Positions 18,819 through 35,907 are shown, counted from the first letter of the stretch. The stretch is 43,394 nucleotides of DNA from a virus (IMGVR_UViG_3300015263_000944:1-43394), one strand, 5' to 3'. Notes: generated by a model not told the origin, from the sequence alone. Program-made: numbers and translations.

Positions 18819-19454
18819 TTAAAGGGTAAAGCCCCCAATCGCTTTGAAGGCCCATAAGAACGGCCAAGCAACTTTGCCATAGGCCACATCCTTGTCATTC
18901 TCCATCATCGCCCTCAATTCATCGAAGGTGACGGGAATGATCTCAATGTCCTCAGAGGCTTCTTGAAACTCTGTGGACGGTGTTCCGCTTGCGTGCCCCA
19001 TCACAATGCAGACCGATTCATCAGTCATGCCAGCGGAACTATAGAGGTTGATGGGACTGACATCACCGATGGGATCGAATGTCAATCCAGTTTCTTCCCG
19101 AAACTCACGCACGGCTGCGGCCTTCGCCGCCTCTTGTGGATCACCATTGGCGGCGGCGAAATCTTTCTCATCGATGAGGCCAGCCGGGAAACCAATTTCT
19201 TTGCGTCCCAAAGGCACACGGAATTCCCGTGTCAAGATGAGCTTCGGCTCATCGTCGGTATGAATGCCAACTACGACTACTGCATCCGGCGTCTTCTGAT
19301 CCGGTGGTGTGGGGGCTTCTCCACGAGCACACATGAAGTATGGCCGCTTCTCTCCGTTCTTGTTCTCATACGTCATCGTATGGAGAGAAAGGAAACAGCG
19401 GCCATTTGGGGCACGGGCGAATGCGATGGGGTGAGAGCCAAGGATTTGAGGCAT
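18819..19454 (-). CDS. Nudix hydrolase
   Basis: Track ORF, ATG. Nudix box E-x7-REFREETGL. Confidence 0.6.
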   Translation of the reverse strand: MPQILGSHPIAFARAPNGRCFLSLHTMTYENKNGEKRPYFMCARGEAPTPPDQKTPDAVVVVGIHTDDEPKLILTREFRVPLGRKEIGFPAGLIDEKDFAAANGDPQEAAKAAAVREFREETGLTFDPIGDVSPINLYSSAGMTDESVCIVMGHASGTPSTEFQEASEDIEIIPVTFDELRAMMENDKDVAYGKVAWPFLWAFKAIGGFTL

Positions 19455-19798
19455 CAGATACCTTTCAGTTGTTGGGCGTCAACGATCTCCTTCGCCAATG
19501 CTTTTGGCGCAATGTACGCCACGTTGTGTTTCGCATCGACGATCATCCAGTGTGTTTCTTCGTCCTCTGTGCTGCCTAGATCAAAATCTTGATCGAGCAA
19601 CCATTGTTCGATGCCTAGCTGGTGGACGTGATCCAGCCAGACCCAGTGATCCGAAACTCCTACGGCGGAAATCTCGCCGTCATCGTACCCCAATTCGTCA
19701 CCGAAACAAGACCACCATACCGCAACGAAACGCCGGTTTCCAGCGATTCCCATTCTGGACAGGAACATAGGTGGTAACTCAAACGGATACTCCGTCAT
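19454..19798 (-). CDS. hypothetical protein
   Basis: Track ORF, ATG. Confidence 0.45.
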   Translation of the reverse strand: MTEYPFELPPMFLSRMGIAGNRRFVAVWWSCFGDELGYDDGEISAVGVSDHWVWLDHVHQLGIEQWLLDQDFDLGSTEDEETHWMIVDAKHNVAYIAPKALAKEIVDAQQLKGI

Positions 19799-20201
19799 CG
19801 GTGGCCTCTCCGGTGTGACCGAATGATAAGTGGAGGGGAATCGATGGCTCTCTAGGCAATCCTAGTTGTTCCCGGATATCCAATAAGCGTGGGCAGGTGA
19901 CACTAAGCCACCAGTAGCAACCATTGGTTCGAGGCTCCGGGTTGTACTCGAACTCGATTACTTCGCCTGTGTATGCTTCCCACAAAGTTTTGTCGGGCGG
20001 CTCCTCATTGCGGATGACAGTGATATGCTCCTGCCATGCTGGTCGCATTAGGGTTCGGCAACCGTGATGATCTAAATGATACAGGGTGCGATAGTATTTG
20101 CCAATGTTGGGATCGCAATCCAACACCAGCCACCACTTCTCTGATTCCCGATTGCCTAACAGCTTTGGGCTGTATCGGAGTGTTCCTACCGAGCCAGTCA
20201 C
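19779..20201 (-). CDS. hypothetical protein (GTG start overlapping upstream TGA as GTGA)
   Basis: Track ORF 19779..20405; its first 69 residues overlap gene 20198..20575 and look non-coding; I propose GTG 20201 with GGAG SD. Confidence 0.3.
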   Translation of the reverse strand: MTGSVGTLRYSPKLLGNRESEKWWLVLDCDPNIGKYYRTLYHLDHHGCRTLMRPAWQEHITVIRNEEPPDKTLWEAYTGEVIEFEYNPEPRTNGCYWWLSVTCPRLLDIREQLGLPREPSIPLHLSFGHTGEATDDGVSV

Positions 20202-20527
20202 GAAATGAACTCCATGAACTGGCGGCAGTTGCCCATCACGCTTGGGATTGGTTGTCCGTTGGGCAACACCTCTTGTTTGATCGCCTCGATAAATGATTCG
20301 GGGACTTGATCGATCTTGCCATCTGGATACTTGCCGATTGACAGTTGCCAGACGAGTCGTTGAGCCGACAACTGAGTGCGAGTCAATTGCACACTGAGTT
20401 GCCATCCTTCCAAGGTGAGAAGGACTTGGTTCTGCGTGGGCAGTAACCCTTGTCGAGCGAAGGGTTGGAATGGAGGGTTGTCTTCTGCCCGCTTCCGAAG
20501 TTGCCTAGCGGCTTCCTTGATGTCCAT
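20198..20527 (-). CDS. hypothetical protein
   Basis: Track ORF 20198..20575 trimmed to ATG 20527 (MDIKEAARQ). Confidence 0.4.
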   Translation of the reverse strand: MDIKEAARQLRKRAEDNPPFQPFARQGLLPTQNQVLLTLEGWQLSVQLTRTQLSAQRLVWQLSIGKYPDGKIDQVPESFIEAIKQEVLPNGQPIPSVMGNCRQFMEFIS

Positions 20528-20598
20528 GAAAAGTCTCGTATGAAAAAAGGCGAGCCGCAACCCCACAAGGGCCACGGCCCGCCTCCCCGATCAAGTTC

Positions 20599-33544: not shown

Positions 33545-34036
33545 TTAATCGAACACTGCGGAAAGCTGTTCGAGGACTTCTTCACTTTGGTCGTTGATGC
33601 GTTCGGCCTCATCGGCGGTGAGGTGTAGACCTTTCACCATCCGCTCCATGTCTTCGATGCCCTCCAAGATGATGTCGCATTGAACATCAACGGTATCGAC
33701 TTGACGTTTTGCCTCTTCCAGCAATGGCTCGATAGCGGAACGTCGGACGGAGTTATAACCACTGGGCCACGTTTCAGGCGTCAACCTGCCAACATCATAC
33801 CAGATGGCTTTGGAGCACAATTCTTGGACGATTGGCTTGCGGTTGTCAGGAAAGAGATAGCTGATCTCTCGTCGCAGGGAGACAACGAAGAGATCAACTC
33901 TTTCTGCCCGATTTGATTTCAGATGCTCTCGCTTGGAGATGCGGTTGACATGACGAATAGCCTTCCCGAGAGCCACAGCAAGCTGTTTCTTTTTGTCTTG
34001 CGGCAACTCTTCGATAGTGCTTGCGTTAAACATCAC
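33545..34036 (-). CDS. hypothetical protein
   Basis: Track ORF, ATG. Confidence 0.45.
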   Translation of the reverse strand: MMFNASTIEELPQDKKKQLAVALGKAIRHVNRISKREHLKSNRAERVDLFVVSLRREISYLFPDNRKPIVQELCSKAIWYDVGRLTPETWPSGYNSVRRSAIEPLLEEAKRQVDTVDVQCDIILEGIEDMERMVKGLHLTADEAERINDQSEEVLEQLSAVFD

Positions 34037-34052
34037 GCCTCTCCTTGAGACC

Positions 34053-35228
34053 TCAGTGATTTATGTGATCGGCAATGCCATTCAACATCATCCCGATCAT
34101 AGACCAGTCAACCTCGTCCGTCAAGAGAACGTCCCTTAATGTTTTCACCTCTACATAGGTTCGTTCTGTGTCCTCTATAACACCAAAAGTCTGTTGCTTC
34201 GCAGCAAGTTCCTCTGCTTGACGAATCTCCTCTTCTGTAAGCTCAACCGTGAAAAGCACAGCCTTGTGAGTCGAAAGCGTCGATGCTAATTGCCTTGCAC
34301 ACACCTGATTGAATCGACTGGCTGGTATTTCAAGTCCTGTCTCTTCTTTGAGTTCATCGGCGGCGATCTCCAACGCATTTTCTTTGTTCTTGAAAGAAGA
34401 ACCGCCCGGAAGCTCATGCACAAATCCTGTGCTGTTTCGAGCAGGAGAGCGAAACTCCTTGATCAGTACAATTTTTGTAGCCAAAAGATCGTTGGAGTCA
34501 AGATCCAGCCAGTAAGGCAAGATGGTGGAGATGTCCGAGCGGGTGAAGATGTACTCATTTTCCTTGTACCGCTGTTCGGAATCAATCCAGACTTTCACCC
34601 ACAAAATGTAGGAGAACAGGAAGTTGATCTTGGGGATCACAAACTTCCACAACACCTTGGCCTCATCAAGCCGATTGCCTGCGGCTTCTTGTTCCTTAAG
34701 CCATGCTTGGAACATCGGCGTATTGTAGATGTCTAGCGGCACATAGCGAGAGCCACCTTCACGATCTGCGCCCTTTAGTTCCGCAACTTGGCTTGCTAGT
34801 TGTTGTATGGAGTTGCACGGCTCACGGCCAGTACAATCTTTGTAAAGCCAGTCGAGATAGCGGGTCTTGGGTGCATCGTCTGGCCGACCATAGAAGAGCT
34901 TCCCATCGTTCACATATCGACCGAATTCAACATTCGTAGTGAAAGCAGGCATCGAGTCCAGATTTCGTGGCACCCACGCCACGATTCGGTCGGAAATTTC
35001 AAGACCCAGCTTCTCCCATTCAGTTTGAGAGTTATAGTCCTTCGACCATTCCCCGTCCCGAGCTTCGGGCACAAAGACATGACCATCGAAACCAGCTTCA
35101 GCTAGGGCCTCGATCATCTGGGGACGCCACGAAGCAACTGGGTTGTCTCGGCGTGGCGTAGGACCAACAAGAAAGACGGACTTGTTGATCGTATTGGGAA
35201 TCGCTTCCCTTGCGTAAATGATGTGCAT
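34053..35228 (-). CDS. fusion protein: N-terminal nucleoside 2-deoxyribosyltransferase-like Rossmann domain + C-terminal Nudix-like domain
   Basis: Track ORF, ATG with SD AAGGAGG. N-term VFLVGPT...HVFVPEARDGEW; C-term variant Nudix box E-x7-DELKEETGL. Confidence 0.5.
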   Translation of the reverse strand: MHIIYAREAIPNTINKSVFLVGPTPRRDNPVASWRPQMIEALAEAGFDGHVFVPEARDGEWSKDYNSQTEWEKLGLEISDRIVAWVPRNLDSMPAFTTNVEFGRYVNDGKLFYGRPDDAPKTRYLDWLYKDCTGREPCNSIQQLASQVAELKGADREGGSRYVPLDIYNTPMFQAWLKEQEAAGNRLDEAKVLWKFVIPKINFLFSYILWVKVWIDSEQRYKENEYIFTRSDISTILPYWLDLDSNDLLATKIVLIKEFRSPARNSTGFVHELPGGSSFKNKENALEIAADELKEETGLEIPASRFNQVCARQLASTLSTHKAVLFTVELTEEEIRQAEELAAKQQTFGVIEDTERTYVEVKTLRDVLLTDEVDWSMIGMMLNGIADHINH

Positions 35229-35304
35229 TTGAACCTCCTTGTTCAGACGGAATTAAAGGAGATTCAACAAATCAACGCAAGAGCATCTTTGACAAAACTT
35301 CAGA

Positions 35305-35907
35305 TTATCTCTGAAGTTGCGCCGTCAGCCCTGAGCGAGTGTACTTCATCATCGTGAAGACATCACTCCCGAAAGCCTCACTGATTTCCTCGCCACGGGT
35401 AAACATAGCATCCATCAAATCGCTGGCCTTCTTCCAGTATTTGACGGCGTACTCAGGATCACTCGACAACCAATCGCAGACGTTGCAGAAACGGTCGGCG
35501 CACTTGATGACCAGAGCATCCACGCTCTTCTGCATGAATGATCGCATGTAATCCCGCTTCTGAATGTGGTCGGGTCGCTCATCACGAGGGTCAGGAATGA
35601 ACGTCAACTCGCTCACGATTGAAGCGGCATCTTCGCCGATCACAGCGATGAGTTCCTCATCTGTGACACCACAATCCTCTTTGGTGTCATGGCAGATGGT
35701 GGCCTTCCATACCTTCAGATTCCGCAATTCCCACTCCGTACCAATGACTGTGAGAACAGACATGGGATGGACAATGAAAGGCAGGCCGCTTCCCTTGCGG
35801 AACTGTCCTCGATGTCGATCTGTGGCGAAATCAATGGCTGCGAGAATCTCGGATTGAGCGTCTTCTGTAAAGACATCCGGTTCAGGCGGCGGGATCACTT
35901 TGGTCAT
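35305..35907 (-). CDS. HD-domain small alarmone hydrolase (SpoT/Mesh1-like (p)ppGpp hydrolase family)
   Basis: Track ORF, ATG with SD GGAGGAGG. Motifs HRGQFRKGSGLPFIVHP and ICHDTKED. Confidence 0.6.
   Translation of the reverse strand: MTKVIPPPEPDVFTEDAQSEILAAIDFATDRHRGQFRKGSGLPFIVHPMSVLTVIGTEWELRNLKVWKATICHDTKEDCGVTDEELIAVIGEDAASIVSELTFIPDPRDERPDHIQKRDYMRSFMQKSVDALVIKCADRFCNVCDWLSSDPEYAVKYWKKASDLMDAMFTRGEEISEAFGSDVFTMMKYTRSGLTAQLQR

Follow-up and report, generated by a model that had tools for sequence, protein, structure and literature searches.

The 43,394-nucleotide stretch IMGVR_UViG_3300015263_000944:1-43394, which we refer to in its entirety as the window, is part of a huge-phage genome, and nearly all of its long open reading frames (ORFs) lie on the minus strand. 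One of them encodes a protein in which a deoxyribosyltransferase-like (DRT-like) domain is fused to a Nudix domain, and gene neighbourhoods put this fusion squarely in the salvage of nicotinamide adenine dinucleotide (NAD). The original prediction had grouped the fusion with a separate Nudix hydrolase (Nudix1), a PARP-like ADP-ribosyltransferase and a small alarmone hydrolase (SAH) with an HD domain as a dispersed set of NAD, ADP-ribose and alarmone enzymes. On balance, and by a small measure, we favour a reading in which the fusion, Nudix1 and the HD protein are three independent, catalytically intact enzymes: the fusion a bifunctional enzyme of the NAD/ADP-ribose cycle, Nudix1 a pyrophosphatase and the HD protein a SAH. 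We see in them neither a co-evolving module nor an operon or dedicated system, but independent genes in the conserved backbone of one phage clade. The interest of the window rests almost entirely on the fusion enzyme, not on the "set".

All three ORFs lie on the minus strand where they had been placed, and the genes of 391 and 200 amino acids (aa) were also called by JGI on a sister contig. Profile searches bore out every domain assignment, those for Nudix1, both halves of the fusion, SAH and the PARP-like protein alike. The features concerned are:

18819-19454, minus strand: Nudix1, Nudix hydrolase of the ADP-ribose/ADP-sugar pyrophosphatase type (211 aa), with its Nudix box at about 19083-19181
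34053-35228, minus strand: fusion protein (391 aa), PF15891 plus a Nudix domain resembling ADP-ribose pyrophosphatases (ADPRases)
34779-35228, minus strand: N-terminal DRT-like domain of the fusion (PF15891), residues 1-150
34056-34673, minus strand: C-terminal ADPRase-like Nudix domain of the fusion, residues 186-391, including an N-terminal beta-sheet extension
34332-34403, minus strand: variant Nudix box of the fusion, GSSFKNKENALEIAADELKEETGL, in which the Arg of the "RE" pair is D291 and E292, E295 and E296 are kept
35305-35907, minus strand: SAH (200 aa), HD domain, RelA/SpoT-homologue superfamily, same strand as the fusion and 76 bp upstream of it

Domains, conserved residues and fold of the fusion protein

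The fusion passes the PF15891 threshold over residues 16-113, and its N-terminal domain has a Rossmannoid fold of the deoxyribosyltransferase type. Conservation across the family is tight, with sequences 43-76% identical to the query, a mean column identity of 44-51% and about 50 invariant columns. The invariant residues of the N-terminal domain include G22-P23-x-P25-R26, W34-R35, Q68, W71-E72, D80, P87-R88 and T97-T98-N99-x-E101-x-G103. The glutamate of the last motif (E101, codon 34926-34928, in TTNVEFG) is the candidate catalytic residue; it is invariant in 41 sequences and aligns with a glutamate of the structure 4mcj. From what is established about deoxyribosyltransferases and Rcl, its position is probably equivalent to that of their catalytic glutamate (NDT Glu98, Rcl Glu93). 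Three of the invariant residues are arginines (R26, R35 and R88), which would suit a phosphate-bearing substrate, as in Rcl and MilB.

The fold matches of the DRT-like domain scored as follows:

4mcj (BDI_0649): 16.9
YtoQ: 12.5
deoxyribosyltransferases: 10-11.3
MilB: 11.3
Rcl: 10.2
TIR domains: 8-10.4
LOG: 8.1

The two nearest structures, 4mcj and YtoQ (8of6), are without known function. Unlike the window protein, none of BDI_0649, YtoQ, NDT, MilB and Rcl/DNPH1 is fused to a Nudix domain.

These comparisons bear on the published reading of the family (Iyer et al. 2021, 2022), which takes the N-terminal domain for a novel ADP-ribosyl cyclase (ARC) producing signals of the cyclic ADP-ribose (cADPR) type from NAD+, while the Nudix domain degrades them, the two together acting as a "toggle" on host signalling. 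Jumbo-phage surveys describe the orthologue from Bacillus phage G, gp334, as an NAD-utilising domain fused to Nudix (PMC7824862, repeated in the follow-up PMC9503650). ADP-ribosyl cyclase is absent among the top 60 fold matches of the DRT-like domain, however, and in the profile scan not one member of the fusion family matches the cyclase Pfam family at E<=1. The ARC label is unsupported by sequence-profile or fold similarity to (CD38-like) ADP-ribosyl cyclases, and we consider the cyclase reading improbable. Profile and fold comparison thus correct the published label of the phage G orthologue.

The C-terminal half of the fusion is sub-threshold on its own sequence (Pfam NUDIX E=0.015). We regard it as a Nudix domain because 35 of 39 homologues match Pfam NUDIX and because the glutamates of the box are conserved, E292 and E296 being invariant in the family and E295 nearly so. 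Its N-terminal beta extension is typical of NDP-sugar and ADP-ribose pyrophosphatases, and its best matches are NudF, NrtR, NudE, NUDT5 and NUDT14.

The full-length architecture recurs in phage G gp334 (AEO93593.1) and in LR745208, from an uncultured huge phage, with 42-43% identity over 98-99% of the protein; LR756511, likewise from an uncultured huge phage, matches residues 1-150 only.

Distribution and gene neighbourhoods of the fusion family

The fusion belongs to a large, tightly conserved and uncharacterised family with hundreds of clusters, found in bacteria and in many huge phages. A HMMER scan of 1.84 billion representatives returned 1580 clusters (at 50% identity) at E<=0.001 and 440 at E<=1e-30, nearly all of about 390 aa and matching end to end. 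A scan of bacteria and archaea, with one genome per species, found the fusion in 445 species. Carriers include Myxococcota, Planctomycetes, Verrucomicrobia, isolate actinomycetes (Dactylosporangium, Actinomadura, Catellatospora) and many members of the candidate phyla radiation (CPR/Patescibacteria).

Neighbourhoods were analysed at 78 loci, and at 18 of these the fusion lies inside a compact NAD cluster. All but one of the 18 come from named CPR lineages, and the fusions have a median pairwise identity of 47%. The typical CPR order is NadK, NadE, NrtR, (radical SAM), fusion, PncA, PncB, NadD, sometimes with an ADP-ribosylglycohydrolase (ARH) as well; examples are L159 (1514-11194), L171, L172, L175 and L122, within the range L120-L181. 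The commonest immediate neighbours of the CPR fusion are the nicotinamidase PncA and the phosphoribosyltransferase PncB. At nine CPR loci, an uncharacterised radical-SAM protein of about 290 aa stands beside the fusion; a relationship of its gene to the radical-SAM/SPASM genes of the window was tested, and the two proved unrelated.

On the viral side, 146 loci with fusion relatives were collected and 80 kept, nearly all on contigs of 100-620 kb. NrtR-like genes occur near the viral fusion in eight loci from five lineages and ARH in seven loci from six lineages. NrtR, ARH and fusion are packed into a tight operon in L008 and L014, where the fusion shares 54% identity with that of the window, and L008 also has an NAD synthase near the fusion. 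L021 and L039 carry an NrtR-Nampt pair 2-5 kb from the fusion; the ORF after Nampt in L039 has a weak, non-significant similarity to adenylyltransferases for nicotinamide mononucleotide or nicotinic acid mononucleotide (NMN/NaMN).

In 27 viral loci (L060-L086), the DRT-like domain occurs alone, as a gene of 150-180 aa without Nudix. In 15 of these, from about 11 lineages, it adjoins a calcineurin-like metallophosphoesterase (MPE) of about 200 aa (for example L068 9971-11090). L061, which is syntenic with the window, has MPE, DRT-only gene and PARP contiguously in place of the fusion, the pair of MPE and DRT-only gene being at 9342-10465. Because an MPE adjoins these DRT-only genes, a phosphoesterase partner is retained even without the Nudix domain. 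The MPE seems to stand in, as an analogue, for the fused Nudix domain, and this partner swap argues for coupled phosphoesterase and glycosidase steps.

We found neither this swap from Nudix to metallophosphoesterase, nor the NAD-salvage-cluster context of the fusion in CPR bacteria and huge phages, nor the lack of support for the cyclase label in the searchable literature.

A proposed two-step reaction

From the domains, conserved residues, folds and neighbourhoods described above we infer substrates, an order of steps and a physiological role for the fusion. In the first step, the ADPRase-type Nudix domain would cut the pyrophosphate of an ADP-ribose-type dinucleotide, such as ADP-ribose (ADPR), NAD(H) or a derivative, to give mononucleotides. 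In the second, the DRT-like domain would use Glu101, as in deoxyribosyltransferases, Rcl and MilB, to cut the N-glycosidic bond of the resulting ribose-5'-phosphate nucleotide. The substrate of this step would most likely be NMN, yielding nicotinamide and ribose-5-phosphate, or alternatively AMP, yielding adenine; we favour NMN because of the PncA/PncB and Nampt neighbours. The products could then enter NAD resynthesis, nicotinamide by way of PncA/PncB or Nampt, and ribose-5-phosphate by way of phosphoribosyl pyrophosphate. In the phage, the enzyme may clear and recycle the ADPR, NMN and NAD fragments left by the phage PARP and by NAD-dependent enzymes, and possibly those left by host NADase defences.

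In its most specific form, which we put forward as a tentative and rather doubtful proposal, the fusion would be an undescribed two-step enzyme that dismantles NAD and ADP-ribose. It would supply the missing step of NrtR-controlled CPR salvage, the release of nicotinamide and ribose-5-phosphate, and huge phages would have acquired it, either alongside NrtR, ARH and Nampt or, as here, with PARP and SAH, so as to convert what NAD-consuming reactions and host NADase defences leave behind into NAD precursors again.

A close precedent for such an architecture is the NadM-Nudix or NatV type of protein, an NMN adenylyltransferase joined to an ADP-ribose pyrophosphatase, which is found in NrtR regulons and in NARP2-type phage salvage. 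Like the fusion, it combines an ADPRase-type Nudix domain with a second domain of the NAD cycle, two of its structures (2qjo and 2qjt) are among the fold matches of the fusion, and it too occurs in NrtR-associated clusters and in large phages (PMC7824862). Its partner domain is a HIGH-motif nucleotidyltransferase, whereas that of the window fusion has a DRT-like N-glycosidase fold. With this partner instead of a nucleotidyltransferase, the predicted direction of the fusion is breakdown and recycling, not synthesis.

Several observations weigh against a role of the fusion in the NAD/ADP-ribose cycle, or at least do not sit easily with it. The Pfam scan of the window ORFs detected no Nampt, NMNAT, Adps or Namat, nor any other NAD salvage gene, NrtR or ARH. 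In bacteria outside the CPR (Myxococcota, Planctomycetes, actinomycetes), no gene recurs beside the solitary fusion. At both loci scanned, promoter and terminator signals were no stronger than in shuffled controls, so that we make no claim of an operon or of co-transcription for SAH and the fusion. The Nudix chemistry of the fusion may be atypical, because the Arg of the "RE" pair is not conserved. Our search of the literature on PF15891, YtoQ and the fusion found no biochemical characterisation of the family. Finally, a gene resembling the T4-type kinase for deoxynucleoside monophosphates (dNMPs; T4 Dnk) directly follows the fusion in 12 viral loci. Phage G gp334, annotated merely as "NUDIX hydrolase", lies among replication genes, between those for DNA polymerase III, where the window fusion instead adjoins SAH and lies about 6 kb from PARP. 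The kinase neighbour and the phage G context fit deoxynucleotide metabolism equally well.

The last two observations also speak for the main rival of the NAD/ADP-ribose reading, a remodelling of the deoxynucleotide pool with no link to NAD. The Nudix domain would convert (d)NTP to (d)NMP and the DRT-like domain, acting like Rcl/DNPH1, would split dNMP into base and deoxyribose-5-phosphate, thereby ridding the pool of a canonical or damaged nucleotide, to the benefit of the replication or modification of phage DNA. Rcl, a dNMP N-glycosidase, and MilB, a hydrolase of CMP and hydroxymethyl-CMP, are among the closest folds, and a dCMP-deaminase-like gene and adenylosuccinate synthetase lie near the fusion in L008, L013 and L021. 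However, the structure of the Nudix half places it with the NDP-sugar/ADPRases, whose N-terminal beta extension it has, and not with the MutT/dNTPases. The genes that recur near the fusion, namely NrtR, ARH, PncA/PncB, NadD/E/K and Nampt, belong specifically to NAD and ADP-ribose. We regard pool remodelling as unlikely.

Should the reaction of the fusion be defined, it would reveal the route by which the NAD cycle of the genome-reduced CPR bacteria releases nicotinamide and ribose-5-phosphate. It would also explain a recurrent gene of huge phages, and tell whether the phage toolkit against NAD-depleting defences gains an enzyme.

Nudix1

Nudix1 passes the Pfam NUDIX model PF00293 (E=3.6e-9, 37.2 bits against a cut-off of 21.1), and the solved structures closest to it all belong to ADP-sugar or ADP-ribose pyrophosphatases, NUDT5 among them (PDB E=4e-6; range 4e-6 to 2e-4). 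Measured against the consensus GX5EX7REUXEEXGU, its Nudix box reads E108-x7-R116-E117-x2-E120-E121-x-G123-L, with an insertion of about 10 residues that lengthens the spacing from G to E. The REFREETG core (R116, E117, E120, E121, T122) is invariant in 28 aligned sequences, that of Nudix1 included. With NUDT5, NudF and NudE the protein shares the pattern LVxQ[FY]R...G..E[FL]PAG[LM][IL][DE] and the Nudix core; it differs from them in the insertion and in a score far under the NudE equivalog cut-off (NCBIfam NudE 3.7e-9, 36 bits against 169). As judged from its sequence, Nudix1 is most simply a plain ADP-ribose/ADP-sugar pyrophosphatase.

Homologues of Nudix1 number about 1100 and are common on huge-phage contigs, often the same contigs that carry homologues of the fusion; relatives in cultured phages are only about 30% identical. 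Single-protein pattern scans of IMG/VR found no relatives of either Nudix1 or SAH, and among the matches listed by an alignment-based IMG/VR scan with Nudix1 there were only distant relatives, of 33-40% identity.

The small alarmone hydrolase

By its sequence, the HD protein is a standard phage SAH. It passes Pfam HD_4 PF13328 (E=5.4e-8, 33.2 bits against a cut-off of 27.2) and matches phrog_990 at 5e-26. TIGR00691 spoT_relA matches it at 7.8e-17 over model positions 1-119, which is the hydrolase part only, and there is no synthetase domain. The best solved relatives are human HDDC3/MESH1 (5.6e-12), followed by Rel/SpoT hydrolase domains, and in the alignment to MESH1 all catalytic residues are present (H47, H73-D74, E77-D78, D138, N142). 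MESH1 has been reported to have NADPH-phosphatase activity as well; a tie of SAH to the NAD theme by such an activity was considered and proved unsupported, no HD_4 gene recurring in the CPR NAD clusters.

Phage records with a homologue of the window SAH number 156, many from jumbo phages, and no SAH in a sequenced phage record is more than 38% identical to it. It resembles metazoan MESH1 and the stand-alone SAHs of Salmonella phages PVP-SE1 and SSU5 in having a single HD_4 domain, a length of about 200 aa and the full set of catalytic motifs. The two phage enzymes neutralised five of five toxSAS toxins tested (PMC7229694), so that the SAH call of the original prediction agrees with experimentally tested phage SAHs that neutralise toxic alarmone synthetases. 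By homology, the window enzyme would strip the 3'-pyrophosphate off (p)ppGpp or (p)ppApp, and possibly act on pyrophosphorylated tRNA too, and may thereby blunt the stringent response and toxSAS-type abortive infection. "HD-alarmone PDEases" of jumbo phages have been described before (PMC7824862).

The enzymes do not form a set

Recurrence was scored within 10 kb of the fusion across 80 viral loci, 79 of them from IMG/VR plus the related contig L003. SAH occurs in three of them (L003, L054, L061), PARP in two (L003, L061) and Nudix1 in none, so that the enzymes are indeed dispersed, as had been claimed. The sister contig L002, which lies outside the 80, carries PARP as well as SAH and so adds a fourth case of the latter. 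L003 and L061 share the entire gene order of the window. Elsewhere, the window order of AAA ATPase, 172-aa gene, 309-aa gene, 204-aa gene, Nudix1 and 146-aa gene is kept in L109 and, without the 309-aa and 204-aa genes, in L110, at 33-74% identity. The co-presence of the enzymes is thus due to common descent along the collinear backbone of one huge-phage clade.

SAH does lie directly beside the fusion, as had been noted, and this adjacency could suggest a dedicated pair that erases immune signals. The DRT-like domain would open or cleave 2'/3'cADPR or His-ADPR, signals of the Thoeris type, at the anomeric carbon, the Nudix domain would destroy the product, and SAH would remove alarmones. There is a precedent in RyDEP, a phage glycosidase of unrelated fold that cleaves 2'/3'cADPR and feeds NAD resynthesis (PMC13232231), and the adjacency of SAH and fusion recurs in an unrelated arrangement, with a different order, in L054. 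This is the only independent repeat, which is too little to argue for a coupling of the two genes, and SAH accompanies the fusion in only the few viral loci listed above. Moreover, the fusion is a single chromosomal gene in the 445 bacterial species, among them free-living actinomycetes and myxobacteria, which is unexpected for an anti-defence protein. Such a pair is, in our judgement, very improbable. Any effect on Thoeris, CBASS or NAD-depletion defences, which the original prediction had envisaged, we infer only.

The prediction also had the enzymes jointly make, trim and recycle ADP-ribose-type nucleotides. What stands of this is the involvement of the fusion in NAD/ADP-ribose turnover, which the genomic context strongly supports (the 18 CPR loci; NrtR, ARH and Nampt in phages); comparative evidence speaks against a functional set. 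For the making of such nucleotides, the window holds nothing except PARP, which consumes NAD+. The pairs Adps+Namat, Nampt+Nmnat and PnuC+NadR-like, which define the pathways NARP1, NARP2 and NARP3 (PMC13464706), are likewise absent from the Pfam-scanned window ORFs; NARP3, which concerns PnuC/NadR, is unrelated.

At the level of the repertoire, the idea is already in the literature, and the window adds a further member of described enzyme types. HD-type alarmone phosphodiesterases, Nudix enzymes acting on ADP-ribose and phage PARPs are all listed in the survey by Iyer et al. (PMC7824862, section 3.4.8). Because jumbo-phage surveys already list all of these types, the enzyme set is an ordinary one for giant phages.

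Huge-phage context and other genes of the window

A megablast search with 18.5 kb of the window against 50,697 phage records gave no nucleotide match, and thus no close sequenced relative. At the protein level, the relatives of the fusion gene in the same collection include those of Bacillus phage G (497 kb) and of uncultured phages of 485-642 kb, and JGI metagenome contigs, the longest of 238,888 bp, encode an identical fusion protein.

Three further genes with a bearing on RNA ends or ADP-ribose are:

19779-20405, minus strand: 2H-phosphoesterase-like protein (208-aa ORF), two genes upstream of Nudix1; phrog_12204 9e-27
26630-28294, minus strand: PARP-like ADP-ribosyltransferase (554 aa); Pfam PARP 1.4e-19, WGR 6.4e-6
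29427-30140, minus strand: RNA ligase (237 aa); Pfam RNA_ligase 1.2e-30, phrog_24030 RNA ligase 2.6e-55

The PARP-like protein has its WGR domain at the N-terminus and the catalytic domain at the C-terminus, with the residues of the H-Y-E motif visible in FHGTR, GSYFA and NNEWIIY. It lies about 6 kb from the fusion, and its orthologues in L003 and L061 are 56% and 46% identical. The 2H-like assignment is a putative one, made because of the PHROG match, a sub-threshold match to Pfam 2H-SAK (E=0.0017) and two HxT/S motifs (H127-I-T, H192-L-S) that are both kept in the homologues from L111 and L047; a sequence search against the PDB gave chance-level matches only. Conservation of this ORF is confined to about residues 72-199. 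The first 70 or so residues are without counterpart in the homologues and the PHROG match begins at 72-73, which suggests that the true start of the gene probably lies well downstream of 20405. Together with the RNA ligase, the 2H-like protein lends the block a flavour of RNA-end and ADP-ribose processing, in agreement with descriptions of large phages (PMC9503650).

Immediately downstream of PARP lies a DUF7694 protein (phrog_7839; 25889-26557, minus strand), whose homologue tblastn did not detect beside PARP in L003 or L061. The next stretch (24629-25759, minus strand) corresponds to a single 351-aa gene on the sister contig L002 (19524-20579) and is split in the window into ORFs of 279 and 93 aa by a short insertion (...VVEIR|NAS*DVGM|NEDTAK...) that brings an in-frame stop; the split reflects either strain variation or an assembly difference. 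Between PARP and Nudix1 (20599-24587, minus strand) follow a 583-aa AAA ATPase and genes of 172, 309 and 204 aa. The ATPase is closest to proteasome-type ATPases (TIGR03689 3e-79, under the cut-off). It is conserved with the 172-aa gene in L003, L061, L109 and L110; the 309-aa and 204-aa genes are present only in L061 and L109.

The remaining gene content fits a huge-phage accessory region, with an ArdC-like anti-restriction protein, a sigma factor, several AAA ATPases, an HNH endonuclease, the RNA ligase, the WGR-PARP protein, a C39 peptidase, radical-SAM/SPASM proteins, a carbamoyltransferase and a sulfotransferase. The ArdC-like protein (1972-3093, minus strand) consists of an ArdC N-terminal domain and a zincin-like MPTase-PolyVal metallopeptidase, and has a homologue near the DRT-only genes of L069-L072. 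The HNH endonuclease gene (13255-13926, minus strand) is 67% identical to a copy in L110 (7568-8233) that has another relative position there, and is probably a mobile element of the homing type. Within 30995-41559, a GT2 glycosyltransferase, the C39 peptidase, the sulfotransferase, the carbamoyltransferase and two radical-SAM proteins are clustered, an arrangement that is conserved in L003 and L061 and looks like a peptide- or sugar-modification cluster within the phage. In both radical-SAM proteins of the window, the SPASM domain is N-terminal to the radical-SAM core, which is an unusual order.

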